DNA of 64,000 bases, taken from Gammaproteobacteria bacterium. Lineage in GTDB: Bacteria; Pseudomonadota; Gammaproteobacteria; CAJXQU01. Location of the stretch: the NCBI GenBank assembly GCA_965238175.1, contig CBDEGZ010000003.1:2624001-2688000 (forward strand), written 5' to 3'. The notes under the pieces are model-generated. The model made no database searches, had not been told where the DNA came from, and saw only the letters and a list, made by a program, of their open reading frames with translations. The position numbers and the translations under genes are program-made. This document shows positions 179 to 51,407 of the stretch, one piece after another (position 1 is the first letter of the stretch; each line of letters begins with the position of its first letter).

Positions 179-2908
179 TTAAAGCTCAATTTTTGTTTCC
201 AACCCACCACGATTTAACTTCAAAAATAATTCCTCAGCGGCATCTCTACCATTAAACTTTTTCTGGCTTGCTAATGCGATCTCAAGTGATTTTCGAGCGG
301 AACCTGGTTCACCCGATCGCACAAGAGCTTCCGCCAAATGATAATGAAATTCCGGTTCGCCTGGAGACTTATCTATCGCAAGCTCAAGCAAGTTTTGTCC
401 TTGTTCTAGCTGACCCTCTAACACCGAAAACCATCCATATGAATCAATAACCTGAGGTATCTCAGGTGTCGCTAGATATGCCCTCTTAGCTAAAGATAAT
501 GCTTTTTTGAGATCGATTTCGTTATACACCCATGCAAGGTTATTCAAAACAAGTGCATTCTCCGGATATACCTTTAATAAGTTTTCATAAACACTGATTG
601 CCGTTTTTGTATCTCCAGATTTGTGCTTATTAGCTGCTAGCGTCATTCCTATCCTTAAATTGTCAGGCTGCTTTTGAGCCTCTTGTTCTAACATTGATTG
701 CGCTTCAATATTTAACCCTGATTTCAGGAAAGCGTTATAAAGTTTTAGAACTAACCCGGTCGTTTTATGTTTTGCAATGGCATCTTTATAGGCTGAAATT
801 GCCTCACTAAACTTGCTTTGCTTTATTAGCATATCACCGTGCAAAATATAGCCATCAGAACGATCAGAAAACCTTACCTTCAAATCATTTGAGATTATTT
901 CAACTTCAGAATAATTTTTTAATAGAAGCGCTTGTTTACCTAGTTCTATTAACGATTCAGGATTGCTACGGTTAGATAAAATTAATGCAGAATCCAACGC
1001 CTTCTGGCTTTCCTCTATTTGACCATTCATCCGTAATGCTGTGGCATATTTTGTTAATAGTTCGGGCGAATCTGGCTTGAGCATAATTAATTTAGAAAAA
1101 ATATTAACGGCTTCAGAAGATCTGTTTGTCGCCAACTTAACGTCACCAAAGTACATCTGTACATCAGGTCTGTTTGGGGAAAGGTGCTCTAATTCTTCCA
1201 AAATTCTTTGTGCTTTATTAATTTGTCCTAGACCTAAATAGTATGTACCTAATAAAAGACGTGGTGATAGCGCTTCTGAATTTCTATCTTTGGCCATTTT
1301 CAAGAGTTCTACTGCCTTGTCGTTATTTCCAAGTATTTGTTCTTGAATTGCCATCTCTGTCATAATCTCTGGATTGTATGGTGAGTCATATAGTGCTTCT
1401 TCAAAATGTTTTGATGCTAAATCATAATTACCTTTTTGCTGATGAATTTTAGCTAGCCTGACGGTGGCGAAAATAAACGGACGCTTTAAATCGAGTGTTT
1501 TAAGAAACGCTGTTATCGCTTGTTCTAAATCTCCCATACTTTGTGATGCAATCCCTGACAGATACCATAGCATAGGTGTATCAGGGGATTGTTTTATCAG
1601 TTTATCCGCTATAGTTTTTGCTTGTTCGTACTTACTTTCTTGTAATAAAGTTGTGATCAAACTTATGCCAGCATGATCATTTTCCGGTTCAATTTCTACA
1701 ACCTCTTCTAATAACTTTATCGCCTTTTCACGATCATTTTTTATGTCATTACTTCTTCCTAAGTAACCCATTGCGCTATACATTTTAACTAAAACAGAAT
1801 TCGGCGAAACTTGGCGTGCCTGCTCAAAATATTCTATAGCTGAATCATTCTCACCCTTGAACAAATAAGCATTTCCTAAAATAAGCAAAAACTCTGAATT
1901 TGTTCTTCCAACCTCATAATGATTTTCAAGAATTTCAAGTGTCGAATCTGGCTGTTGTTTTCTCAAGAATATTGAAGCAATGTACATTCTGACATCGAGA
2001 TCATTTGGATACACTTTCAAATATCGACTTAGGAATGTCTCACTTCTATCCAAATGCCTCAAATCCAAATGTAGTTTACCCATCAAAAACAAACTTTCTT
2101 TATGATTTGGCTCTACCTTTAACACCTTATTAAGAAATTTTTGCGTTTCTGAAATGTTATTTTCAAAATAATGAATAGTTGCAAAAAGATAATTCGCAAC
2201 TACATGCTCGGCTTCTATTTCTAATACTTTTTCTAAATGTTTTTTTGAATCATCTAAAACACTATTATCTTCAGAATATATTCGATGACTACTGGGTACT
2301 ATCCAATCGTTCTCAGTATCTTGCGTATTACGTTTTGCACTCACATTTGATTTGTTCTTTTCTGCTTGAATGATTCCTTCTTGAGCTAAACCTAAATGAG
2401 ATGAAATTAAATCAGGATCAATTAATAATGCCCTTTGATAATAGTTCTTTGCTTTTTCAACTTCATTTAATCCAGCAAAACAATGCCCAGATAAAGCAAG
2501 CCCTTGTGCTGTTTGAAATTGATCTTGATTATCATCTATTATCGAAAATGCATTTTGAAACTTGGCAGTATGGATCAGTGCATCTACTAAAGAATAAAGA
2601 ATAATTTGACTGGTTGAACCACCTTCAACCACTGTAGTGAGTAGCTCTATGACCTCTGAATACTGCTTTTTTTCAAGAAGTATTGCACTCAGCTCGACTA
2701 ATGCAGACTCATTGTCAGGATATTTTTGAAGGATATCTTTTAGTTCTAATAATGCAATCCCCACATGATTCTGAGAACGATGTAACTTAGCTTCTCGAAC
2801 TAACTCATTGGGACTTTTTAGATTACAACCCGTGATGAACAATAAACATAAAATAACTACTCTTATTTGTCTTACATAACCCATTATTATCATATCCTTT
2901 GATAACAC
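179..2908 (-). CDS. prsT: PEP-CTERM system TPR-repeat lipoprotein (PrsT-like)
   Basis: 909 aa with an N-terminal lipobox (LFITG-C) and many TPR repeats. C-terminal 'VLNNLAW..A..LA.RAY..P..P.V.DSYGW' is typical of PrsT. Directly downstream of the exosortase. True start may be a few codons internal. Confidence 0.8.
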   Translation of the reverse strand: MLSKDMIIMGYVRQIRVVILCLLFITGCNLKSPNELVREAKLHRSQNHVGIALLELKDILQKYPDNESALVELSAILLEKKQYSEVIELLTTVVEGGSTSQIILYSLVDALIHTAKFQNAFSIIDDNQDQFQTAQGLALSGHCFAGLNEVEKAKNYYQRALLIDPDLISSHLGLAQEGIIQAEKNKSNVSAKRNTQDTENDWIVPSSHRIYSEDNSVLDDSKKHLEKVLEIEAEHVVANYLFATIHYFENNISETQKFLNKVLKVEPNHKESLFLMGKLHLDLRHLDRSETFLSRYLKVYPNDLDVRMYIASIFLRKQQPDSTLEILENHYEVGRTNSEFLLILGNAYLFKGENDSAIEYFEQARQVSPNSVLVKMYSAMGYLGRSNDIKNDREKAIKLLEEVVEIEPENDHAGISLITTLLQESKYEQAKTIADKLIKQSPDTPMLWYLSGIASQSMGDLEQAITAFLKTLDLKRPFIFATVRLAKIHQQKGNYDLASKHFEEALYDSPYNPEIMTEMAIQEQILGNNDKAVELLKMAKDRNSEALSPRLLLGTYYLGLGQINKAQRILEELEHLSPNRPDVQMYFGDVKLATNRSSEAVNIFSKLIMLKPDSPELLTKYATALRMNGQIEESQKALDSALILSNRSNPESLIELGKQALLLKNYSEVEIISNDLKVRFSDRSDGYILHGDMLIKQSKFSEAISAYKDAIAKHKTTGLVLKLYNAFLKSGLNIEAQSMLEQEAQKQPDNLRIGMTLAANKHKSGDTKTAISVYENLLKVYPENALVLNNLAWVYNEIDLKKALSLAKRAYLATPEIPQVIDSYGWFSVLEGQLEQGQNLLELAIDKSPGEPEFHYHLAEALVRSGEPGSARKSLEIALASQKKFNGRDAAEELFLKLNRGGLETKIEL

Positions 2909-2948: not shown

Positions 2949-4499
2949 TTAATCAACCTTATCAAGGTTTTTGTTGATAGCCTTTATCATACTGCTATGA
3001 AAATCTCTCAGTTGATTACTCGCAACTACATATCCATCTGTAATATCGGCGGAAATCATGATGACTGAAGATACCTTGTTCCCCACGAACAAACCATATA
3101 AGTCCAGAAACTTACTGACAATTGGGCGCGTTGTTGTTTTCCCTGCCGTTCTATACCAATACCAAATCAGCTTTTCCTTACCTGCAGGACTCTTTAATTT
3201 CAACTCAAGAACTTTATTACCAGTATCATTCACTGTTTGGCCAACCGTATGGATCTGCCGTGTAACCTCTTGCCATATCTCTTCTGAGTATAGGTAATTA
3301 TTTACATTGATTAATTCTTTATCTTGTTTTTGAGTTTGATATGAAGCTATGTAAAGTCGTACCCTATTTTGTGCAACTTGATAATACTGATCAACAATAT
3401 TATCAGCCGCATTATAATTTGGTCGTAATGGTCTATAAGACTCAACATAATCAAATACTTCTTCCCAATCATCATTCCCGACTGGTGCGATTAACAGAGA
3501 CTCAGAATCCGTTATTAAGACATTATCATTTATATCATAGAGTCTTTGTTTGATTAGTGGACCTGATAATAGTGCTACAACAACAAATGGTAAAATAAAT
3601 CTATAGCTTACTTTAACATCATCGTTTTGTTTCTTGCTGATACGATTTACATAACTTGTATTTTTAGCTTTTACCTTTTGTTCTGCCTTACTAAGCATAT
3701 TACCTATGAAAAAGACTGGTAATAACATGCCAACAAAAATATACCAGCCCAATGTTAAGTGCTCATGTACCCAAGGATGCTGCATTTCGGTTAAATTACC
3801 TGCAATTACTACTGTGCTAATTCGTAAAGCATTGGATAACAAAGCTGCAAAAACAACTATCGCAAAGAAATAAAATGCTCTCCACTTTGTTAAACCTTCA
3901 AGATAAATATAGAATCCACCCAACGTCATTGCCGCCAGTAGATATCGCAATCCACTACAGCCTTCAGCAACAAAAAATTTCCCAGCGGGTATGTTCAAAT
4001 AAACACCCTCTCGAAGAATAGCTGTACCAGTCAGTTTCACCAAAAAATGAGAAACAACTGCTGCAAAAGTTTGAAGATAGGGTAAAAATAATTCCCACAC
4101 AGGAAAAGCAACTAACAGAAAAACAATTGGAAACCATAGTCGTGTCAGAAATTCTCTGCCTGCAAGGGCAAAAACTAATGTAGGTACAAGTAAGAAAAAG
4201 CTTATATTTTCTACAAAACGAATACCAAGATAAATACTGACCACCCAAAGTAATGATAATGGTATCAGCAGAATACTTGCTATCAAATTCGGGCTCAAAC
4301 AGATGTCTTTGATCTCTTCTCGCCATCCCCAAATCATATAGAAAGAGATAGTTAAAACCGCAAAACCGTGTGCATATGCACCGTGCTCCCACTGCACCCA
4401 GTCATTTAACAGATATTGAATCGTTTCTATATAAGCAATCAAAAATATTGAACTAATAATAAGAAAAATTGCTAAGGTTTTAAAATTTGTCTGTGCCAT
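2949..4499 (-). CDS. xrtA: Exosortase A fused to EpsI domain
   Basis: Multi-TM N-half with YAHG, catalytic VAEGCSGLRYL (Cys), NALR (Arg) and HLTLGW (His). Soluble C-terminal EpsI-like domain (Y.TQKQDKELIN, LIWYWY). Confidence 0.88.
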   Translation of the reverse strand: MAQTNFKTLAIFLIISSIFLIAYIETIQYLLNDWVQWEHGAYAHGFAVLTISFYMIWGWREEIKDICLSPNLIASILLIPLSLLWVVSIYLGIRFVENISFFLLVPTLVFALAGREFLTRLWFPIVFLLVAFPVWELFLPYLQTFAAVVSHFLVKLTGTAILREGVYLNIPAGKFFVAEGCSGLRYLLAAMTLGGFYIYLEGLTKWRAFYFFAIVVFAALLSNALRISTVVIAGNLTEMQHPWVHEHLTLGWYIFVGMLLPVFFIGNMLSKAEQKVKAKNTSYVNRISKKQNDDVKVSYRFILPFVVVALLSGPLIKQRLYDINDNVLITDSESLLIAPVGNDDWEEVFDYVESYRPLRPNYNAADNIVDQYYQVAQNRVRLYIASYQTQKQDKELINVNNYLYSEEIWQEVTRQIHTVGQTVNDTGNKVLELKLKSPAGKEKLIWYWYRTAGKTTTRPIVSKFLDLYGLFVGNKVSSVIMISADITDGYVVASNQLRDFHSSMIKAINKNLDKVD

Positions 4500-5407: not shown

Positions 5408-6706
5408 CTACAACATTCTTGCATAGCGCTGACTGGTTTCGTCCAGTCGCTCTATGAGTATTTTTTGAATCGTCTTATTAATTCTCATTTGACAAGATAA
5501 AGATGCCCAATCGGACAAAGAATCTTCGAGTTTTAGCACCACTGTTTTACTGATAGCCGTAATAGTTGCAGATCGTTTTCCATCATGCAACCAGGACATT
5601 TCACCAAAACAATCACCATCACTTAACGTTGTAATTTCTTTATCCATTTTAGTCACAGAAACATTTCCAGAAGTAATGACGTAAAACGTTTTATCTTGTT
5701 TACCTTCGCTCATGATATGAGTACCAGCCAGGCAAACCTCCCATTCACCTTCTTCCAATATTTCTTCTATATCTTGTTCGGAAAAACCATCAAAGAACTT
5801 CAGTTTAGAGAGCAGTTCGAGTTTTTGTTCCCGGGTAAGTTGTTCTTCAGAAGTTTCAATTTCAAACTCAACTTTTATCAAGTCCTCAGCTAACTCAGCA
5901 CAATTTTCATACCGATCCTTTGGTTTTTTTTGTAATAATTTATCTATTATTTTTGATAATGATGGTGGTATTTCAGGACGATATTTTTGTATTGGTTTTG
6001 GTTCGCTGGTAACAATATTCTTAAAAAGTGCAGGCATAGTACTGGCCTGAAAAGGGTGAACCCCAGCTAATAATTCATACATAACAACACCGAGAGAAAA
6101 AATATCTGTTTGATGTGTTAACGACTTACCACTTGCTTGTTCAGGCGACATATAAAGAGGAGATCCAAGGCCTTTTTGAGTCGAGATTTTTTCATGTGCC
6201 TTTCTAACTGCAATACCAAAATCCGCAATCTTTAAATCACCCTCTTTTGTCAACAAAAGATTCGCTGGTTTAATGTCCCTATGAGTGATCCCTTTTCCAT
6301 GCGCATAGTCCAATGCTTCTGCACATTGGCGAATGTAATGTAAAATCTGAGTCACAGGAAGTAAATCTTTTCGCTTGCGAAATGAGCGCAATGTATCTGC
6401 GTCTTCGACGAATTCTATCGCAATATAATCCTGGCCATCGGCATCCCCCGCCTCATAAACTTTAATAATATTCGGGTGATCAAGTATTCCAGCCGCTTTA
6501 GCTTCGTTAAAAAATTGCCGATGATTATCTTCTGCCATTGTTTCATCAAGTGAGAACTCACCTGCAGTAGCACTCAGACTTACCTTTATAGCCACTTTTC
6601 TATCAACGAATGGATCATGCCCTATATAGACAACGCCCATAGCTCCTTTGCCGGCTACTCCAACAATTTCATACTTACCTATTTTTTCAGGTAATTTTTC
6701 AGACAT
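5408..6706 (-). CDS. Hanks-type Ser/Thr kinase with C-terminal cyclic-nucleotide-binding domain
   Basis: Kinase motifs [35 protein letters not shown]-terminal cNMP motif GDCFGEMS...RSATITA. Likely ATG at 6706 overlaps the upstream stop (TAATG); the ORF track starts at 6739. Confidence 0.88.
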
Positions 6707-9700
6707 TATGCAGATTCCACGGAAACTGAATTCAAACACTCGGCTTTTTCAGCTTCTGATTCAGTAATATAATCAATATTCATTTCGACTAGTAACTCCA
6801 AAGTATCCTCATCAATTTCATGAGATACGACAGTTTGTTTTTCCATCATATGCGCTATATCATTAAGTGATTTAATCAAACCATAACTTTGTGCACTTTC
6901 AACAACGTCACTCGTCAAGATCTCATCTATACAAATGTAGTCAATCGGTAATTTCAATGCCTCCTGACTCAACCCATTAACACCAAATTGACCCAATGAA
7001 AAACGACAACCAAACTCTCTCAATGTACGGATAAAACGAACAACACTTAGCTTTTCATCTTCAGAAAAAATTCCAGGGACATCGAAACAGATCTTACCAG
7101 GCGGAACCGAACACTCCGTTAGTTTTTTGATTACATAATCAAGCGCTCCTCTAGAATTGATCGTTTTAGCAGAAAGACTTATCAAGCATCTTGTTTTTGA
7201 TAAAGTCTTTTTCTTATTCTCAGACATCCATTCAAGACAATTATGAATATATCGCTTTTCGAAAGCACTAATAAGATCGTGATCAGAAGAAGCTTTTATA
7301 AACCGTTCCGGCTTTCTTAAAACACCCTCTTCATCTTCCATGGCTGGAAAAATATGTAACATCTTGATAGCTTGCTCTTCCTTATTCGCAACAATTCGTT
7401 GGCCATATAGTGGAATGCGTTCTTCAGACTGACTATAACCTTCTAACCAAAATTGCCAATCAATAACTTCATGTTCAGAATCAACTTTCTGTCCATCTTC
7501 AGAGGGGGAAACTTCTTCATGGATCCAAGCTTGGTTTTCTCCTAGCTCCTTAGCTTTCTCACAAGCATCAATCGCTAGCGAAACTACTTGATCAATATCC
7601 GTCGCTAATTCATTAATAACTGATATTCCAATAGAAATTGGGAAATGAACTCTTACATCTTTCAAGATAAAATCACTATCTTCTAACGATTTAAGCAACG
7701 TTTCTGCAAGAATAAATGCCCCTTCTCTAGACATAAATTCGGATGTAATACCTAATGCATGTTCACCATGCCTACCAATAAGGCTTTTTTGTCCAAAGAC
7801 TTCCAAAGCCAATTTAGCAACGTGCTTTAAGTAATTAATTATTTTTTCATTATCTTCACCATCTTCAGCTACTGATAATGATAAATAGAAGAATTCATGT
7901 TCAACATGATCTTGACGAGCATTTTCCAACAATAAGCCGAGTTGCGTACGATATTTCTCTTCATTAAGCAGTCCTGTTTCTTCATCAATGATGATCTGTT
8001 TATTCACATCATGATAAGCACCAAATAAACTCGAAAGTATTGCTCTGTCAAACAATGGTTTTTGATCTTTGTCAGATAATTCAGCAGTTCCCTTTAACAA
8101 TCTTATAACGAGTTCCTGCTGGGTCATACTTACAGCTTTATTACCCTCATTATCGACAAAAATAAACTGATTATAAGCTGGTCCTATCCAGGCAAGTGAT
8201 AGCAATTTTCTTTCACCTGCCACACCTTCAATAACAAGAGAATCACCTCTTCGCATTGACTTAGCATGACTTTGCCAAACTTTATACTCACCGGTAGGTT
8301 CTGGAATTTTTGATCGATTCCGATTCTCATCAGGATTGTCTTTCTTAAAACCCTGTAGCAGCGTTTGATCTTGGTTACACTGATCAATAACTTTCTGAAC
8401 ACGTAACTGGTAGAGGTTACTTTGTCGTTCTAATAATTCATTTAGACTATTAGTTATATTCTCCAAGCTATTTGCATCATAGCTTTCTAATGACAAAATC
8501 CTTTCCACAATGTCATCAATGGCTGGCCTGATCTCGATTTGTTGACTACCACCACGCATATCCAATTGCTCAAATAGGTTTATGATATTTCGCAGTGGGT
8601 TGGATCTATCTTGAAACAAACCTCCTTCGGAAATGGCTTGCTTGTAAAGAACTGCTTGCATACGCTGAAAATCTTGCCTTGCGTAACTACTTAAATATTG
8701 TTCTTCTTTAAGAAAATCTAAAACACCTTCAGCAAGACCAAACACATTTTGTACATCTGCCCCAAATTGTTGGCCCCCATTCTGAAATAACGGGTTTAAT
8801 CGGCCTTCGATATCTCCGATCATTTCACCTTTTTTCCATTTAAGGTTATCTTCCTGCTGGATCCGATTAAGAAGCGTAATGATCTGTTGCTGATTAGCAA
8901 CGCTTATTGTTTCATTTGCACCAGCTTGTTCCTGGAACATTTCATGTGAGCTCGTTGGAATACCGACACTATGTTTCAGCGCCATTAAAGTTTGTGTAAT
9001 TTGTTCACTACTTTGTGGCGCAAAAGAAGGTACTGCACCCGCCATTACAGGTACTCCAATGTTGTTTCCATTGTGACCTGTGGGATATCCCCTCCCTGGG
9101 TACATTTGTACTTGTTGAGGCACTTCTATTTTGTCACTCGTCCTTCTCAGTCGGGAACTTTCATGAACAGTTCCAGGCCGTTTACTAGCTCTATTCTGAG
9201 GAGAGCTTTCTATACCTTCAGAAAGTTCTTCATACAAAATGATTAGATCTGGGAGTAGAACTTCTTCCAGTTGATGATAGGCCAATCTTAGCGCCGTATA
9301 CCCAAGATCTTTACTTTGAAGATACGAGTCAATCGTTGTAAATAAACGAGAAAAACCAATAGGATTTAGAATTTCATCATAGTTAGAATCATATAACTCA
9401 GACAACTTTCTGGTGACTCTATATAACAATAACCGATGATCAGCTTCAGCATCTGATACTATCCCAGTGAGTACTAGGTAGGTTTCGAATTCTTTTTCAG
9501 CAACTAGTGATAAAGTACCACTTCTTGATAGATCTTGATTTTCAAAAGCCTTTTCCCAATTGAGTGCAGGTCGTTTATGAAATTGACCTTGTATAGCCTT
9601 GGTAATATTTGTTACTGCACTATCCACATAGTCTTCGAATACACCATGAGCATTGAAATATTCATACTTTTCATTTTCGTCAGTAGTTTCCTTAATTGAA

Positions 9701-10272
9701 AGTAGTAATCTGTTTGTTAACTTTTTGAAATAATATTTCAGAATTCTTTCGAGACTTTGTTCAAGACCCAATTTACCTTCCGGTAATTTGTTGTATTCTC
9801 CAGACTTGGTTTTGTTAGTTTCCCGATCTTTATGTTCCGCACTTTGTTTTTTCTTTTCAGTAACTTCTCCAATTTTAACCAAAATATCCAGTACTTTTTT
9901 ATCTGGTTCTTCAAAAGAAACCCCCATCCCACTTTGGAAGATGCGCACAATTTTGAAGTTTACAGAATAGTTTTTTTCACCCGCACCTTTATATTTAACA
10001 ACGAATTCGACAGAAAAACGTCTACCTTGGATCGAATCTTTGATTGCTTGAATTTCAGATCTACCTTGTTCATCTCTCCATGAAAGGAAAAAACCATCAG
10101 GACAAAAATCTCGAATAATGCAGGGTTTTGCTTCTAACTCGCCACCACGTAAAGTGGCACGCATAGCCATAGGCACACGTCTGTAGCGCCTTCTTTCAGC
10201 TCCAGTAGCTTCTTTTATTGATTCTTTTGACATAAATTTGTTTGGTCTCTTTTCTAGAAACTTAACATTCAA
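6706..10272 (-). CDS. PilZ + DUF1631-like + degenerate GGDEF/EAL protein
   Basis: N-terminal PilZ (RRRYRR...DFCPDG) and a helical DUF1631-like middle. GGDEF-fold region with GEHAL in place of GGDEF; EAL-fold region lacking the EAL and DDFG motifs (GQFG). Probable start ATG at 10233. Confidence 0.72.
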
Positions 10273-44809: not shown

Positions 44810-46483
44810 ATGTCAGATATAGAAATCGCCCAAAAAGCAAAAATGAAGCCTATTATTGGCCTCGCTAAAGAAAAATTCGGGGTTGAAGCAGAACACCTCG
44901 ATCCATACGGTCACTACAAAGCCAAACTGTCACTCGATTATGTTGAAAGCTTGAAAGACAGGGAAAATGGAAAACTCGTCCTAGTAACCGCCGTCAGCCC
45001 AACACCTGCAGGTGAAGGTAAAACAACGACAACGGTAGGTCTTGGCGACGCACTAAACAGAATTGGTAAAAAAACAATCATGTGCTTGCGTGAACCTTCA
45101 CTCGGCCCATGTTTTGGTATGAAAGGTGGTGCTGCAGGCGGCGGTTATTCGCAAGTCGTACCAATGGAAGATATCAACCTTCATTTTACGGGTGATTTCC
45201 ATGCAATTGGTGTAGCACATGCGCTTTTAGCTGCCATGATTGATAACCATATCAATCATGGTAACGAATTAGGTATCGATCCTCGTCGTATCCAATGGAA
45301 ACGTGTCGTCGATATGAATGATCGAGCTTTGCGTAAAATCACTATTGGTCAGGGCGGACCAGCAAATGGTTATTTGAGAGAAGATGGTTTTGATATTGTT
45401 GTCGCCTCTGAAATCATGGCTATTCTTTGTCTCGCCACAAGCCGATCAGATCTGAAAGAAAGACTTGGACGTATTCTGGTTGGTTATAAACGTGATAACA
45501 AGACGCCTGTTTATGCGCGTGATCTCAATGCTCAAGGCTCTATGGCCGCACTGCTAAAAGATGCGATTAAACCAAACTTAGTACAAACATTAGAAAACAA
45601 TATCGCCATTATTCATGGTGGTCCATTTGCAAATATTGCTCATGGTTGTAATACCGTAACCGCAACTAAAACTGGTTTGAAACTAGCCGATTATGTGATC
45701 ACTGAAGGTGGTTTCGGTGCAGATTTGGGTGCTGAGAAATTTATTAATATAAAAACACGAATGGCGGGTTTAAACCCTTCAGCCGTTGTATTAGTAGCAA
45801 CAATACGCGCACTTAAATTCCACGGCGGCGTTGCTAAAGAAGATCTGAATACTGAAAATCTTGATGCGCTTGCTAAAGGCATGATCAATATGGAGCGTCA
45901 TGTTGAAAATATTCAAAACGTTTACGGGCTACCTTGCGTAGTTTGTTTAAATCACTTCACTTTAGACACAGATGCAGAAGTTGCCTTACTACAAAAACGT
46001 TGTGAAGAACTAGGAGTGAGATCAGTCGTCTCCAAACACTGGGCAGACGGTGGTGCAGGTGCAGAAGACCTCGCACACGCCGTAGTAGACGTTGTAGAAA
46101 ACAATCCTGGCAAGCACACTTTTGTCTATGACGACGATATGCCTTTATGGGATAAAATCGAAGCAATCGCCACAAGAGTCTATCGCGCAGCCAGCATTTC
46201 AGCCGATGCAAAAGTGAAGAAACAACTTGCTGACTGGAATGAAGATTATGGCTCCTATCCGATCTGTATGGCAAAAACTCAAATGTCATTCTCAACAGAT
46301 CCGACGGCTAAAGGTGCCCCAACAGGACATAATGTACACATTACTGAGGTTCGCTTAAATAATGGTGCAGGATTTGTTGTCGCCATTGCCGGTAGTATGA
46401 TGACAATGCCGGGACTACCTAAAGTGCCAGCAGCAGAGCGAATTGATATTGATGATGATGGAAACATCACTGGTTTATTCTAA
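44810..46483 (+). CDS. fhs: Formate--tetrahydrofolate ligase (FtfL)
   Basis: [53 protein letters not shown]. Confidence 0.97.
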
Positions 46484-46511
46484 AAAATCTGATCAAATAA
46501 TACTTCTGAAT

Positions 46512-46542
46512 AAAAAAGGCCGGTTAATGACTGGCCTTTTTT
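46512..46542. terminator. Bidirectional intrinsic terminator between fhs and the DGR
   Basis: AAAAAAGGCCGGTT-AAT-GACTGGCCTTTTTT. Confidence 0.75.
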
Positions 46543-46754
46543 AGTTGAACTGTAGATGTGTAATAGCTCAGATTAAAATGATAATTTGAAAATATGAGTT
46601 GTATTAGCCTTATAGTTTGTAAAATATTAGAAGTCTCAAACCGTCTAACTGCTACCATTCGATTAAAGCTTTTTATAACTTTCGACTGCTCATAGTGGCA
46701 TAACCGGTCAATAAACAATCTAACGATCTAATAGTAGTCGACCTCATCTAGTAG

Positions 46755-48230
46755 TTACTGTGAAATTAGCCTACATGTCGGCTCCCGTTGCATTACTTCC
46801 ATCGATACCGAGACTTGTTCTTCAATAAACAACACAGACCTTCCACATTCCAAAATCGTCTTAACTTTCTCTATCGCCAGTCTCACAGGAAACCCAAAAC
46901 GTGCGCCACGATGATTCCGTTTCATTCTGGTAAGATCAAGCTTTTTAGCAACAACCTCATCGGAATGATGATAAAACTCATAAAACTTCCCCACCCGAAA
47001 GAACAACACGTCCCCAGGAAAACGCCAGCGAAAATATCCATACTGTTGACTGACTCGCTGAAAGTTCTTTGGTACAGCATATTTTCTGATCAACTTCCAG
47101 CTAACACTATCAAACTCAAAATACTGCTGCAAATAATCAAATCTGTTCCAAATCGATTGCCACAGGTTCCAGCAACTGGCGAGTTTAAAATGTCCCAGAT
47201 ACGACGATAGCATTGCTGATAATTTATCCAGCAAAGTAATATCAAAGCGATAGCGCGTGACACCGCCCCTTTCTTCAACCAGCAAGGATTCATAGTCACA
47301 CAATTGTTCCTTAAGGTGATTCACCACCCGCCGCCTCACCAGCATATAATCCCGTCGCACGATATAACCGAGAAAATCCAGCCCATTCGAAACTGAGGCT
47401 AGCGGCTGTCGTGAGTTGAGTTGTAACTGGCGATGTTCATTCAGATTAACTTCTATCTGACTTTTCCATTCCAGTAGTTGCTCTCGCTCCTTTGCCAGCA
47501 GCACAAAATCATCACAATAACGTAAGTAATACCGGCACTTCAATTGATGCTTAATCAGATGATCCATACCGGTCAGATAGACATTGGCAAAAAACTGGCT
47601 ATTCAAATTACCGATGGGCAATCCTTTATTGTCACCACAACCAAACAGGGTTTTATGTGCGGGTATTCGTCCAGTTAAATCACGTCCCCGAAAAATATGG
47701 TTCTGTGTACAATCATGATAGACCAGTATTTTCGTCAACCATAATGCCGTGTCATCGTTAAGCTTTGCCGACAATAAGCCATAAAGAATATCCTTATCAA
47801 TGGTCATGAAATAATTACGGATATCCAGTTGCAAATAATACGCTGGTTGTATGCCGTTGCAGGTCACTTGTCGAATAAACCGCTGTAGACGTTTCACACC
47901 ACGATGCACTCCTTTGCCTTTTCGACAGGCATAGGAATCATGGATAAATATTGGTTCCCAGATTTTCTCCAGATAATCTACCAGTAAATGATGCACCACA
48001 CGGTCACGAAAATCGGCAGCAAAGATTTCGCGTAACTTAGGTCGAGTTGAAAAAAAGCAGACAGAACGGGTCGGCTGGTAAGTACGATTGATCAATGACT
48101 CTCGCAGGCTCAACAGTTGTTTCTCCTGCTCAGCTTCAAAACGCAATGCATTAATTGTGTTGCGCTTATTTCTGCGACAGGCGTAATACTGCCGATAGAG
48201 ATTTTCAAGCGACAGGTCGAGAGTGATCAT
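46755..48230 (-). CDS. DGR reverse transcriptase with C-terminal MutS domain-I-like fusion
   Basis: KLREIFAADFRDRVVHH, SYACRKGKG, LQLDIRNYF, DGR signature IGNLNSQ, catalytic YCDD (aa 238-241), DFLGY. From about aa 395: QQY..F...FPGDVLFFRVGKFYEF...A..L.L......GFP...GRSV..IEEQ. Confidence 0.93.
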   Translation of the reverse strand: MITLDLSLENLYRQYYACRRNKRNTINALRFEAEQEKQLLSLRESLINRTYQPTRSVCFFSTRPKLREIFAADFRDRVVHHLLVDYLEKIWEPIFIHDSYACRKGKGVHRGVKRLQRFIRQVTCNGIQPAYYLQLDIRNYFMTIDKDILYGLLSAKLNDDTALWLTKILVYHDCTQNHIFRGRDLTGRIPAHKTLFGCGDNKGLPIGNLNSQFFANVYLTGMDHLIKHQLKCRYYLRYCDDFVLLAKEREQLLEWKSQIEVNLNEHRQLQLNSRQPLASVSNGLDFLGYIVRRDYMLVRRRVVNHLKEQLCDYESLLVEERGGVTRYRFDITLLDKLSAMLSSYLGHFKLASCWNLWQSIWNRFDYLQQYFEFDSVSWKLIRKYAVPKNFQRVSQQYGYFRWRFPGDVLFFRVGKFYEFYHHSDEVVAKKLDLTRMKRNHRGARFGFPVRLAIEKVKTILECGRSVLFIEEQVSVSMEVMQREPTCRLISQ

Positions 48231-48233
48231 TCT

Positions 48234-48363
48234 CCGGGGCGAACGGCAAGGGCAAACAAATTATTAGTCTTATTGTTGTTGTTCTGGTTGCCGTTATTGA
48301 AGTTAAAGTTCAGCGCATTAGAGGAATTCAACTCCACGCCTGACCAGTAGTTATTCGACTGGA
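48234..48363 (-). repeat. DGR template repeat (TR)
   Basis: 115/130 identical to 49270-49399. Has 38 adenines on the coding strand, 30 of them in 15 AAY codons. The 3' 27 nt are adenine-free and GC-rich. Confidence 0.95.
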
Positions 48364-48583
48364 CAATTACCTGCCCTCTTTCCGATAGTATCCTGAGGAT
48401 AAACTCACAAAACGGATACCACCCCACCGGCAAGAAATCTTTGTAATAAAGTAGCCTTGCCTGAATTAACATGCCAGAGAAACTATTCTCAGGCGGGACA
48501 GGCGCACAATGATACACGTTGGTACGCTTACCTGAACTGTCCATACAAACAGGACAAATTAACAGATAATTCTGACTCTCTCA

Positions 48584-48955
48584 TCAAACTACACCTTTTT
48601 CATTTTTTCGTACTCGACTGCTCCTTATCCAGCCCTCGTTCTGTCTGCAAACTGACACCACCTGTTCGATGGCAAATTGAAATGATTTAAAACTTTTGAA
48701 GGCCTTTGCCTCTTTCGCTATACGCACGAGTATCAATAATTCATCGAGCTGTTCGCGCAAGACCAGAAGATGAGGGCGCTTATCCCTGGCGGCATTGGCT
48801 TTCATAATCAGGGAAACCACTACACGGCTTTTGTTGCGTAGTTCTGTGCCGAGCGTGTATTTGTGATAACGGGAGAAGCCCGAAACCACTTTTTCGAAAT
48901 AAACGGCCACATCCATCGCTTGTTTGTAAATCGGAAGATGTTCGTATCTTGCCAT
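48584..48955 (-). CDS. avd: DGR accessory variability determinant (Avd-like four-helix bundle)
   Basis: 123 aa, basic. LPIYK.A.D, F.R.HKYTLG.ELR and C-terminal RQNEGW. Lies between the target and TR. Confidence 0.88.
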   Translation of the reverse strand: MARYEHLPIYKQAMDVAVYFEKVVSGFSRYHKYTLGTELRNKSRVVVSLIMKANAARDKRPHLLVLREQLDELLILVRIAKEAKAFKSFKSFQFAIEQVVSVCRQNEGWIRSSRVRKNEKGVV

Positions 48956-48981
48956 GAGTAAAATTCCTTTTTCTGTAGCGC

Positions 48982-49103
48982 TTGTAGGTCGGATTACAAC
49001 TGCATATATGCCGGAGGTAAGTAGCGCAGGAGCAGTTACCGAGCGCAGCGTAATCCGACAAATAATAAATGCTGGATTATGCTATCGCTAATCCAACCTA
49101 CAA
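48982..49103. repeat. REP-like (GTAG-type) palindromic element
   Basis: Terminal inverted repeats TTGTAGGTCGGATTA / TAATCCAACCTACAA (14/15). Internal GTCGGATTAC/GTAATCCGAC and GGATTA..TAATCC palindromes. Confidence 0.65.
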
Positions 49104-49178
49104 ATTCAAAACCGCAGGGGGCGTCCCCTACCCCCCTAAAGGGTCAAATCATACAAATGACCGAATGACCAAATTACG

Positions 49179-49958
49179 TTACCGCCGTTTCCTTCTAAAC
49201 CCTGCCAACCCAAACAATGCGGAACCCATCAGCCATACAGCCGCTGGAACTGGGACGGCGGCAACATCGCCGGGGCGAACGGCATGGGCAAACAAATTAA
49301 AAGTCTTATTGCGGTTGCGCTGGTCGCCGTTAGTGAAGCTAAAGAGCAGCGCATTAGAGGAACCCAACTCCACGCCTGACCAGTAGTTATGCGACTGGAG
49401 GTTGGTGAATTGGCCTACGTTGTTGAGTCCAGCGCCTGTTTGTGCGACACAGCCGGTTGGGGCGCTGTTGTTGGGTGTGCAAAAGCCCAGGTTGCCCAGC
49501 GTTGCGTAGTATAAATGACCCATTTCTGAGACTGGGGTGTTACTACTGTTCTGCCAGCCGATGCCAGTGGCGCCTGTACCAATGTCGCTGGTGCCGTTGT
49601 TGGTGAAGCCGGTCTGGAAGCTTGTACCATTGATGGGACTTAGGCTTGGCAGGCGCCAGTCGTTGAAGCCGAGGTGGTTGGCGCTGTTCATGCCCGCTAT
49701 CCACAGGTTGGCGTTGTCCCAGGTCATGCGACCGGTGCTGCCAACAGTGTTGGCGGTGTCGTCAGCTTCATTGGTGCTGAGTGTCAGGCCAAACTGGTTG
49801 GTCAGTGCCAAGTTGGCATTGGAGAGCCAGGTGATGTCCAGTACATCATCATAGAGGGCATCGCCGCCCAATCTTGAGATTAAGGTGGCGTGGGCGGTGC
49901 TGCTTAAGCAAATGAGTAGTGTTATTACGCTGAAAGACTTAATACTGATGAGTTTCAT
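49179..49958 (-). CDS. DGR target: secreted DUF1566/C-type-lectin-fold-like protein with PEP-CTERM-type (VPxPAA) sorting tail
   Basis: Sec signal ending AHA. Motifs YDDVLDITWL, MTWDNA, GFNDWRLPS, SEMGHLYY and YWSG. VR encodes QSHNYWS...FAHAVRPG. C-terminal VPVPAAVWLMGSALFGLAGFRRKRR. Confidence 0.9.
   Translation of the reverse strand: MKLISIKSFSVITLLICLSSTAHATLISRLGGDALYDDVLDITWLSNANLALTNQFGLTLSTNEADDTANTVGSTGRMTWDNANLWIAGMNSANHLGFNDWRLPSLSPINGTSFQTGFTNNGTSDIGTGATGIGWQNSSNTPVSEMGHLYYATLGNLGFCTPNNSAPTGCVAQTGAGLNNVGQFTNLQSHNYWSGVELGSSNALLFSFTNGDQRNRNKTFNLFAHAVRPGDVAAVPVPAAVWLMGSALFGLAGFRRKRR
49270..49399 (-). repeat. DGR variable repeat (VR)
   Basis: Differs from TR at 15 positions, 14 opposite TR adenines. 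Nine TR Asn codons become H, G, L, S, T, D, R, R, F. Confidence 0.95.
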
Positions 49959-50017
49959 ATTGTTCCATCTCCTTTTTTATGTTTCGTTTTTGTCGTTGAT
50001 CCTTCTATACGGCAGAA

Positions 50018-50085
50018 AGCAAGTATTGCGCCCGAGTATTGCTTCCTTACTTTTCAATGGCTTAGCGCATATCGATAGTTTTACA
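50018..50085 (-). promoter_or_regulatory. Putative sigma-54 promoter with IHF-like site and TTTACA box upstream of the DGR target
   Basis: Minus strand GGGCGCAATACTTGCT (GG-N10-GC, 50018-50033). Plus strand TTTCAATGGCTTA (50052-50064, 1 mismatch to IHF WATCAANNNNTTR) and TATCGATAGTTTTACA (50070-50085). Confidence 0.6.
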
Positions 50086-50216
50086 AAGGCTCATTAAGTC
50101 AAATTGTGTTGCCTGTGGGCGACAAATAGGCGTAAGTTGCGCCTGGATAAAGTGAATCAATTTGGGAAATTTTAATTCGAAGAGTCGTGTTTTGCAATCA
50201 AGGGCAGACATTCAAG

Positions 50217-50732
50217 CTAGTAATGAATCAAAGAGTGGATCCGATAACCGGATAACTTTTCTCGCCCCTTAAGTTCGTCAAGCTCAACAATAAATGCGCA
50301 GGCCACCACTTCCGCACCTAACTTTTCGATCAATTTACAACTCGCAGCAGCCGTTCCTCCGGTTGCAATTAAATCATCAATAATTAATACGCGATCTTTC
50401 TCTGTTAATGCATCAATATGTACTTCTAGTGAGTTAGCTCCATACTCAAGATCATATGATGCAGTTACAACATCAAAGGGTAATTTTCCAGGTTTACGCA
50501 ATGGTACAAAACCAACACCTAGTTCCCATGCAACTAAGCTTCCAAAAATAAAACCTCGAGCCTCCATTCCTGCGACAGCTGTAATTTCCTCGCCTAAGAA
50601 AGGTTGTATCATCTGATAAACAGCTAATTTCATCGTTGCAGGATCTTTTACAAGTGGCATAACATCTTTAAATTGAATTCCTGACTCGGGAAAGTCAGAA
50701 ATATTTCTTATTTTATCTTTTAGCTGTTGCAC
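50217..50732 (-). CDS. apt: Adenine phosphoribosyltransferase
   Basis: DFP..GI.FKD, EARGFIFG, RKPGKLP, Y.LEYG, VLIIDDLIATGGT. Confidence 0.95.
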   Translation of the reverse strand: MQQLKDKIRNISDFPESGIQFKDVMPLVKDPATMKLAVYQMIQPFLGEEITAVAGMEARGFIFGSLVAWELGVGFVPLRKPGKLPFDVVTASYDLEYGANSLEVHIDALTEKDRVLIIDDLIATGGTAAASCKLIEKLGAEVVACAFIVELDELKGREKLSGYRIHSLIHY

Positions 50733-50843
50733 AACATTTCCTTTTTAATTCAGAAACTTACTCAATAATAACATACCAAACTATTGACAAACATCACAAT
50801 TTTATAGAAGGTTACACTAAAATTATTTCAGGGTGGGTAAAAC

Positions 50844-51407
50844 ATGTTTAAAGTATTAATTGCAGCTATTCTTGGTGGAGCTATATCCTTTGCATGGACA
50901 AGTGCTTCCTGGATGTTCTTACCATGGCACCAACAAACAATTAAACATTTTGATAACGAACAAGCTGTAGCAAAAACACTGAAAGCTCAAGTCGAAGAAG
51001 ATGGAATTTATCTTATACCTAAAATTGATCAAAATTCAGCAAAGCCAATGGAGGCAACAGCAAGTACGGATACATTTGCCTTTATTTCTCTTAGATCAAA
51101 TGGTACAGGCATGAGTATGCAAGAGTCTATGAAATTTTCTTTTTTCAATAGCATTTTTATCAGTATCCTCATCGTAATACTTCTATCATGCACTTCTGAT
51201 CTAGGTTATATGGCTAGAGTATTTTTTGTTATGATGGTTGGTTTAATAGGAGCTTTATCAGGCCATGTTCCCAACTGGATCTGGTGGGGGTTTGCTACCA
51301 ACTATACTATTGTAATGATGGTCGATATCGTTATCGGTTGGTTTCTTGCCGGCTTAGTTATCGCTGCATTTGTCGGACGTGAACCTGAGTTTGAACTTAA
51401 CGAGTAG
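50844..51407 (+). CDS. Hypothetical membrane protein (about 4 TM)
   Basis: 187-aa ORF with hydrophobic helices (W..ASWMFLPWH; PNWIWWGF). No function recognised. Confidence 0.7.
   Translation: MFKVLIAAILGGAISFAWTSASWMFLPWHQQTIKHFDNEQAVAKTLKAQVEEDGIYLIPKIDQNSAKPMEATASTDTFAFISLRSNGTGMSMQESMKFSFFNSIFISILIVILLSCTSDLGYMARVFFVMMVGLIGALSGHVPNWIWWGFATNYTIVMMVDIVIGWFLAGLVIAAFVGREPEFELNE

Follow-up and report, generated by a model that had tools for sequence, protein, structure and literature searches.

A Legionella-like diversity-generating retroelement with a predicted exosortase-sorted, lectin-like target in a gammaproteobacterial genome

A stretch of 64,000 nt from a gammaproteobacterial genome (GenBank assembly GCA_965238175.1, contig CBDEGZ010000003.1, positions 2,624,001 to 2,688,000; the whole stretch is hereafter called the window) contains a diversity-generating retroelement (DGR), which comprises a target gene with a variable repeat (VR), the accessory gene avd, a template repeat (TR) and a reverse transcriptase (RT) gene. 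A sequence-only reading of this DNA had proposed that the element hypermutates a surface protein with a PEP-CTERM tail, that is, an exosortase substrate. The questions raised by this locus are whether the DGR is intact and active, and by which route its variable protein would be displayed. Our analysis suggests, as the likely answer, an intact and recently active DGR of the Legionella-like "CLec2/DUF1566" type, which is carried on a 3.67-kb cassette, whose target is probably sorted by the exosortase XrtD and whose RT is probably aided by a fused MutS domain I.

The gene order of the cassette is target, avd, TR and RT, with the VR lying in frame inside the target gene (Table 1). The location of all these parts on the minus strand, as proposed before, was borne out by the open reading frames (ORFs) and by a repeat search. 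Only a single direct-repeat family was found in 46000-51000, namely the TR and the VR, which are 88% identical and align without gaps. The two repeats show 16 mismatches in 133 nt, of which 15 are at TR adenines and one is a T-to-A change (TR 48249 / VR 49285). Given that 40 of the 133 nt in the TR are adenines, the hypergeometric probability that at least 15 of 16 mismatches fall on A is 2.1e-8; the VR differs at 15/40 adenine positions versus 1/93 non-adenine positions. The slightly narrower TR proposed earlier (48234-48363) gives 15 ungapped mismatches, 14 at adenines, exactly as claimed. We also reproduced, in the target frame, the count of 15 AAY codons in the TR and the nine Asn codons among them that have become H, G, L, S, T, D, R, R and F codons in the VR. 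The TR adenines fall mainly at codon positions 1 and 2 (17 and 20, respectively), with two at position 3. Both repeats share a GC-rich end, GCCGTTCGCCCCGG, after which the sequences part. In the 3.35-Mb genome, neither a further significant TR copy (next match E 0.0086 over 29 nt) nor a second RT, target paralogue or additional VR was found.

The reverse transcriptase and the accessory protein are both of the DGR kind. The RT matches RVT_1 with 58 bits (cut-off 29.6). DGR RTs are defined by the motifs [I/L]GxxxSQ and YxDD, and the corresponding motifs here, IGNLNSQ (I206-Q212) and YCDD (Y238-D241), are invariant in 33 clade members (alignment A2). The ratio of non-synonymous to synonymous substitution rates (dN/dS) between the window copy and a copy in a congeneric genome (G006) is 0.10 over 491 codons, and therefore the RT has been under purifying selection. 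The Avd protein passes the Pfam bAvd model (48.2 bits > 40) and has relatives with 88-90% identity at two of the loci described below (L041 and L084). With all parts intact and differences at 1/93 non-adenine versus 15/40 adenine positions, the anatomy of the element favours recent DGR activity. A second, orphan avd fragment lies in the same genome outside the window (G000:C3:417764-417931); it covers residues 42-97 with 91% protein identity, has no RT, TR or target nearby and is probably a relic of another DGR copy.

The target protein has a signal-like N-terminus that ends in AHA followed by T and contains no lipobox (both read from the sequence by eye). Its domain scores 33.6 bits with the Pfam model Lcl_C (PF07603; cut-off 34.9), and PF07603 is annotated in all 120 listed target homologues in a precomputed table. 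A profile built from 50 target homologues matched one solved structure, the C-terminal domain of Legionella Lcl (8q4e, E 1.3e-4). Together, these data support the earlier assignment of an N-terminal signal, here signal-like, and of a DUF1566/C-type lectin (CLec)-like domain. An AlphaFold2 model of the target on the 50-homologue alignment had a pLDDT (predicted local distance difference test) of 91.5 and a pTM (predicted template modelling score) of 0.83. The best PDB matches of this model in Foldseek, all with low TM-scores, were 8q4e at the top, C-type lectins and formylglycine-generating enzymes; the best viral matches were phage DUF1566 proteins, which were weak (E >= 7.9e-3). The lectin-like fold is plausible, not proven, because all the Foldseek matches were weaker than E 0.001. 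On the model, the VR forms beta-strands at residues 191-197, 202-207, 212-217 and 227-229. The altered residues 205/207/209 and 212/214/216 alternate along two adjacent modelled strands, the pattern to be expected of residues that point the same way, and this alternation suggests that the variable residues would lie on one face of the sheet. The VR is followed by 29 further target codons. Among the 50 aligned homologues, 29 gave sub-threshold matches to the NCBIfam model floc_PepA (flocculation-associated PEP-CTERM protein; best E 3e-9), and the window target itself scored 14.7 bits (cut-off 80); the target may be related to floc proteins.

Directly after the VR, the target ends in a tail of 25 residues (235-259 of 259), VPVPAAVWLMGSALFGLAGFRRKRR. 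This tail passed two NCBIfam sorting-signal models: VPLPA-CTERM (TIGR03370, cut-off 25.35) with 29.1 bits (protein scan) and 32.8 bits (genome scan), and PEP_CTERM (TIGR02595, cut-off 16) with 19.1 and 22.1 bits, respectively. The VPLPA model therewith scores the target about 10 bits above the PEP model. Translation of all hidden Markov model (HMM) matches in the genome (18 sites) revealed two tail classes. The VPxPA class consists of 12 otherwise unrelated ORFs, including the DGR target, which end in (A)VP[VIL]P[AG]..W/LxGS...RRK (VPVPAAVWL...RRK tail), and 5/12 of them are above the VPLPA-CTERM HMM cut-off. The SEP/PEP class consists of six ORFs that end in VSEPGTLALMGLGLLG...RRK or IPEPGT (an ending also given as VSEPGTLALMGL...RRK).

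Which exosortase would process this tail? The sequence-only reading had pointed to an exosortase A and a PrsT-like gene about 45 kb from the DGR. Both genes are real, their distance to the end of the RT being about 42 kb, and the exosortase carries a fused EpsI domain; however, it stays under the XrtA cut-off (192.8 < 208) and is probably the wrong sortase. A second exosortase in the same genome (G000:C3:1622370-1623917), located about 1.05 Mb from the DGR cassette, passes the model XrtD (TIGR04152, "VPLPA-CTERM-specific"; 430.3 > 400 bits). As the cassette was inserted at this site, how far it lies from any gene is a matter of chance. We further compared 11 genomes bearing members of the target family, the window's own and ten others chosen by tail type. 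XrtD was above the cut-off in 4/6 genomes with a VPxPA tail (5/7 when the window's genome is included), both misses being metagenome-assembled genomes (MAGs), and in 0/4 of those with a PEP-type tail. XrtD was found, for example, in Thiohalobacter thiocyanaticus (locus L015), a culturable relative with a VPxPA-tailed family member. As the genomes are few and related to each other, this co-occurrence is supportive only. Overall, the tail class and the model scores make XrtD, rather than the XrtA-like gene, the more likely partner of the target tail. The two tail classes and two exosortases in one genome also offer a natural pairing for sortase specificity. Two genes that adjoin the XrtA-like exosortase (5408-10272, minus strand) encode a Ser/Thr kinase, whose C-terminus is cyclic-nucleotide-binding-like, and an 1188-aa GGDEF/EAL-type protein.

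We then asked whether exosortase-tailed DGR targets occur elsewhere. The target family comprises 1523 proteins at E <= 0.001 (near-length search) and at least 514 stretches in species-representative genomes, with named hosts that are mostly Gamma- and Betaproteobacteria and a few Planctomycetota. From the target side, we surveyed the best 80 genome loci of this family. Their C-termini, classified by regular expression, were VPxPA in 44, PEP in 18 and other in 18, the last group including many near-variants such as IPVPA or VPEA; among the 50 aligned homologues, matches at E <= 0.001 were to VPLPA-CTERM in 27 and to PEP_CTERM in 11. An RT, avd and a long A-biased TR were present in 3/80 loci, with mismatches at TR adenines of 24/31 (L041), 18/18 (L076) and 14/17 (L084), and the other 77/80 had no RT. 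From the RT side, 80 metagenome loci were surveyed. A repeat of the stretch preceding the RT was found in 50/80 of these loci and was A-biased in 42/50, and the MutS_I part was present in 33/80. Seven of the 80 loci encode an exosortase-tailed target homologue (L117, L120, L121, L125, L126, L127 and L130). All seven have MutS_I, and six have an A-biased TR/VR pair with mismatches at TR adenines of 21/22 (L117), 19/23 (L120), 17/18 (L125), 15/16 (L126), 19/19 (L127) and 23/24 (L130). These seven loci are among those whose RTs are most similar to the window's RT; in loci whose RTs are less similar, the VR sits at the very C-terminus or there are long extensions. Three further loci labelled as PEP tails by the regular expression (L134, L137 and L168) were reclassified by eye, as they carry long C-terminal extensions. 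The architecture of the window therefore is not unique: it recurs, with both tail types, in at least 10 other loci (the nine with A-biased mismatches listed above, together with G006). The sequence-only reading knew of no characterised DGR with an exosortase-sorted target. Nor did a full-text literature search turn up a paper that connects DGRs to PEP-CTERM or exosortases, with the limit that supplementary tables of surveys may list such targets, but the locus itself is no one-off.

Many relatives of the target have no RT, and we examined them for traces of DGR activity. Avd fragments only, with 26-98 residues matched at 52-86% identity, follow the family member in 8/80 of the best loci (L013, L020, L023, L024, L026, L044, L073 and L085); in 7/8 of these, at least 5 kb of downstream sequence contain no RT. 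These eight loci look like decayed DGRs. At least 3 kb downstream of the target were covered in 52/80 loci. In five genomes with DGR-less family members, a search with RT residues 1-390 gave no match in any (0/5 at E <= 1e-5), an empty answer that is weak; the full-length RT query did match in other genomes. In the 50-sequence alignment, the 15 columns at AAY positions had a mean entropy of 3.23 bits, compared with 1.14 bits in the rest of the VR (one-sided Mann-Whitney p = 1e-7). For the RT-less loci (n = 70, after leaving out the three DGR loci and seven loci with non-aligning C-termini), the corresponding values were 3.40 versus 1.51 bits (p = 8e-8), with 1.84 bits for residues 40-187. The sequences are related, and therefore these p-values overstate the contrast. 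Because the AAY positions are hypervariable in RT-less loci and avd relics are found there, these data suggest that many RT-less family members may be fixed ("frozen") products of past DGR activity.

The genomic position of the cassette was examined by comparison with congeners. The genes fhs and apt, which flank the cassette, are adjacent (28-315 nt apart) in five congeners (G001, G002, G004, G005 and G006), and four of these sites (G001, G002, G005 and G006) were used for an empty-site alignment. On the left, homology stops after a shared terminator, at 46541-46546 in three sites and at 46481 in G001; on the right, it restarts at 50214-50221 in three sites, with no right-hand match in G005. 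These break points therefore define an insertion of 3.67 kb (about 46545-50213). It contains the four DGR parts and about 255 nt upstream of the target, with no integrase, transposase or recombinase, and no terminal repeats of the insertion were found. These observations support the earlier description of a chromosomal, non-phage DGR. The RT is present in only one of six congeners (G006, 86% identical), where the cassette lies at a different genomic location and the fhs-apt site is empty. In that copy (L116, G006:C3:468000-484000, about 8075-9110), the VR has indels relative to the TR and the target is out of frame before the tail; either the copy has decayed or a heterogeneous VR has led to an artefact of assembly. 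Within the window's cassette, a stretch of about 80-120 nt in the target-avd spacer (within 48982-49104) has at least five copies in G006 and one in G002 (80-90% identical), as well as weaker copies in the window's own genome, and resembles a small dispersed repeat. The numbers of promoter- and terminator-like sites in the region were not above those in shuffled sequence, and the sole match in an Rfam scan was sub-threshold (AbsR25, 34.1 < 47 bits) and fell on the fhs/apt terminator.

Table 1 Features of the DGR locus and of the exosortase genes in the window
Feature	Position	Strand	Basis
Target (variable protein), 259 aa	49179-49958	-	ORF list; signal-like N-terminus, DUF1566/Lcl-type lectin-like domain, VR, sorting tail
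avd accessory gene, 123 aa	48584-48955	-	ORF list, Pfam bAvd
Template repeat (TR), 133 nt, ends at RT start codon	48231-48363	-	Repeat search
Variable repeat (VR), 133 nt, target residues 187-231	49267-49399	-	Repeat search
DGR reverse transcriptase (RT), intact, 491 aa	46755-48230	-	ORF list, RVT_1
MutS domain I at RT C-terminus (aa 393-483), Phe-x-Glu motif in GKFYEF	46782-47054	-	PF01624, 40.6 vs 20.6
VPLPA-CTERM/PEP-CTERM-type sorting signal, aa 235-259: VPVPA, hydrophobic helix, RRKRR	49182-49256	-	TIGR03370, TIGR02595
Inserted DGR cassette, 3.67 kb, between fhs and apt	46545-50213	.	Empty-site comparison with congeners
fhs, left flank of cassette	44810-46483	+	Flanking gene
apt, right flank of cassette	50217-50732	-	Flanking gene
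XrtA-like exosortase with fused EpsI domain, adjoins PrsT	2949-4499	-	EpsH subfamily 155 vs 105.55, EpsI 64 vs 42.8
PrsT, TPR protein of XrtA/PEP-CTERM system	179-2908	-	TIGR02917, 488.2 vs 312.2
Terminator-like hairpin in target-avd spacer	49114-49131	-	Weak consensus match only
Promoter-like site upstream of target, within insert	50169-50197	-	Weak, 9/12 matches

A feature of the RT that had gone unmentioned in the sequence-only reading is the MutS domain I (MutS_I) at its C-terminus. In an alignment with Thermus aquaticus MutS (1ewq), RVGKFYEF of the RT lies over QVGDFYEC, and therefore the Phe-x-Glu motif, with which MutS contacts a mismatch, is present in the RT. Moreover, residues F411, V413, G414, E418 and Y420 of this domain are invariant in the 33 RT relatives of alignment A2. 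With 5493 of 8000 scored proteins matching at E <= 1e-10, the RT clade is large, and PF01624 is present in 72 of the best 120 RT homologues by table count, most of these 120 being similar in length. The fusion in itself is not new, as Wu et al. 2018 (PMC5758913) already report three RTs with a weak MutS_I extension; they also describe 16 DGRs, the Legionella element among them, in which a MutS-like (MSL) accessory gene stands separately. According to a study on Bacteroides DGRs (bioRxiv 10.1101/2024.11.15.621889), Msl accessory proteins resemble the domain with which MutS recognises mismatches, and deletion of the host mutS raises retrohoming 5-10 fold. Because of this effect of mutS deletion, the fused MutS_I, by analogy, probably binds the mismatch-rich cDNA:VR heteroduplex and helps the element to escape from host mismatch repair.

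Several observations weigh against the above reading of an intact, recently active DGR with an exosortase-sorted target. In the target, the Lcl_C score falls just under its cut-off, and Foldseek searches of the PDB and of viral proteins with the target model returned nothing at E <= 0.001. For the DGR itself, Avd stays below the cut-off of the NCBIfam model DivGenRetAVD (44.3 < 80), and no hairpin stands out 3' of the VR (DNA fold of 49130-49290, z = -0.15 versus shuffled sequence). The only non-adenine change (L225H, VR 49285) affects a scaffold residue for which relatives have W or L; it may reflect decay after homing and is a mild sign of drift. The tail is under the cut-off of Pfam PEP-CTERM (PF07589, 18.2 < 20.7), and its motif is VPVPA rather than PEP. 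The pairing with XrtD rests on model names and on co-occurrence in 11 non-independent genomes, including two VPxPA MAGs with no XrtD match, and can be regarded as supportive only. Exosortase cleavage and the final location of the target are predictions, as they are for VPLPA-CTERM proteins in searchable papers. Finally, public sequencing lists the locus in three runs of one sample from one study, as contigs and with no RNA run; the matching contigs (four from X1 and one from X2, none from the third run, X3) are 99-100% identical at a depth of 2-5 and contain no variants, a depth that is too shallow for minority variants. A contig branch at 48665-48697 is explained by the second avd fragment elsewhere in the genome.

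These points bear differently on the alternative explanations. The VR might be a fixed allele left by past diversification, with the DGR now dead. Such a relic would agree with the absence of an RT from 77/80 of the best loci (eight of which keep avd fragments only) and from all five searched genomes holding family members, with the indels in the VR of the congener, with the orphan avd fragment, with the change at a conserved scaffold residue and with the lack of variants in the contigs. However, all four parts of the element are intact and in frame, the differences are confined to adenines except at 1/93 positions, the RT has a dN/dS of 0.10 and invariant motifs, and the contigs at 2-5x are too shallow to reveal minority variants, so that we regard a dead element as unlikely, though a contender to be reckoned with. 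A different alternative, implied in the earlier reading, assigns the tail to the XrtA-like exosortase 42 kb away with its PrsT. The generic PEP_CTERM model is indeed passed (19.1 > 16), both genes are in the same window, and the signal specificities of exosortases are inferred rather than measured. Nevertheless, the VPLPA-CTERM advantage of about 10 bits, the separate SEP/PEP class of six proteins that fits XrtA better, the XrtD gene above its curated cut-off, the distribution of XrtD (5/7 VPxPA-tail versus 0/4 PEP-tail genomes) and the accidental distance of a recently inserted cassette make processing by the XrtA-like enzyme rather improbable.

It is also conceivable that the tail is a mere C-terminal membrane anchor, with the protein sitting in the inner membrane and facing the periplasm, and no exosortase substrate at all. 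A hydrophobic helix (modelled at 239-258) followed by a basic cluster, together with the sub-threshold Pfam score, would fit such an anchor. We consider this very unlikely in view of the two curated NCBIfam sorting-signal models passed, the same motif-helix-basic layout in the 12 unrelated proteins of the genome and in most of the family (44 VPxPA and 18 PEP in the best 80 loci), and the co-occurrence of the tail with the matching exosortase. Many DGRs are phage-borne, and the best viral matches in Foldseek are phage DUF1566 proteins (weak, E >= 7.9e-3), which might suggest a prophage-borne DGR with a phage receptor-binding protein as its target. Against this stand the size and content of the insertion (3.67 kb, four DGR parts only), its position between fhs and apt, and a target with a secretion signal and a cellular sorting tail; a prophage origin is thus scarcely credible.

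In the reading that we prefer, namely that of a recently active DGR with an XrtD-sorted target, the element may work as follows, in line with the established mechanism of DGRs. The RT, together with Avd, would copy the TR RNA and make errors opposite adenines, and the mutated cDNA would replace the VR, whereby up to 15 Asn codons could be randomised on one beta-sheet face of the lectin-like domain. The MutS_I on the RT would bind the cDNA:VR heteroduplex and shield it from host mismatch repair. The variable protein would be exported via its signal-like N-terminus, the VPLPA-CTERM tail after the VR would be recognised and cut, most likely by XrtD, and a variable binding protein would be placed on the cell surface or in the exopolysaccharide (EPS) matrix.

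A bolder proposal, which we put forward tentatively and with more doubt than conviction, extends this scheme to a widespread, undescribed DGR subclass. Its members would combine a Sec-exported DUF1566 lectin with an exosortase tail, avd, a TR and an RT-MutS_I fusion, and would write binding diversity into proteins delivered to the cell surface or the EPS matrix. The cassette might act as a transient, mobile 3.7-kb "specificity generator" that inserts, diversifies its own target and is lost, leaving hundreds of frozen DGR-less lectin genes in Gamma- and Betaproteobacteria with an imprint at exactly the AAY positions, while the MutS_I fused to the RT would give built-in protection from host mismatch repair.

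Phage tail fibres and Bacteroides pili are known to carry DGR variable proteins, and others are lipoproteins (Legionella and Treponema); an exosortase-sorted target would add a further display route and would tie targeted hypermutation to PEP-CTERM/EPS biology in flocs, in biofilms and among environmental Proteobacteria. Little is understood about exosortase substrates. The binding face of this family would be diversified in a programmed manner, and it can therefore be argued that exosortase substrates are ligand-binding, adhesin-like proteins; the family supplies natural variant libraries for probing what they bind. In addition, the imprint in DGR-less relatives allows former DGR activity to be recognised and the gains and losses of DGRs to be counted, and the abundant RT-MutS_I clade allows a direct test of how DGRs handle mismatch repair, which is relevant to DGR-based directed evolution.

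How does this element compare with known systems? The reference mechanism is that of the Bordetella phage BPP-1 DGR (Mtd, bRT and Avd), which shares with the window element the target-avd-TR-RT order, adenine-specific differences, AAY codons on a lectin-like fold and the GC-rich VR end. In contrast to BPP-1, the window element is cellular, has 29 codons after the VR and an RT with a MutS_I extension, and shows no detected downstream hairpin (fold z = -0.15). The C-terminal domain of Legionella Lcl (8q4e) has WRLP and YWS...AVR motifs in common with the window target, in a match that spans about 40-50 residues only; Lcl is a collagen-like adhesin and no DGR target. The known PEP-CTERM/exosortase systems (XrtA with PrsT and EpsI; XrtD with VPLPA-CTERM) resemble the present case in the motif, helix and basic cluster at the C-terminus and in having several same-tailed proteins along with a matching exosortase in the genome, but no paper was found on an exosortase substrate hypermutated by a retroelement. 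The Bacteroides type V pilus-tip DGRs, as described in the above preprint (bioRxiv 10.1101/2024.11.15.621889), likewise combine a dedicated surface-display pathway with Avd and a MutS-like factor, and their retrohoming is limited by host MutS; unlike in the window, display occurs by pilus assembly and Msl is a separate protein. Another close parallel is the Legionella pneumophila DGR with its target LdtA ("category d"/CLec2; PMC5758913). This element is also chromosomal and non-phage, has avd and a MutS-related module accompanying the RT, and its lectin-like target, which is of the DUF1566 type and has its VR close to the C-terminus, is exported for display. The MutS-like module is a separate MSL gene in Legionella and is fused to the RT in the window, as in the three fusions reported there; according to the same paper, LdtA is a lipoprotein with an N-terminal anchor, whereas the window target carries a C-terminal exosortase signal after the VR. 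Taken together, the window element belongs to the DGR family and resembles the Legionella-type CLec2 DGRs in the way it works, its RT being fused to MutS_I. What sets it apart from known DGRs is its predicted display route, by a C-terminal exosortase signal behind the VR where the others use an N-terminal lipid anchor, a pilus or a phage fibre.

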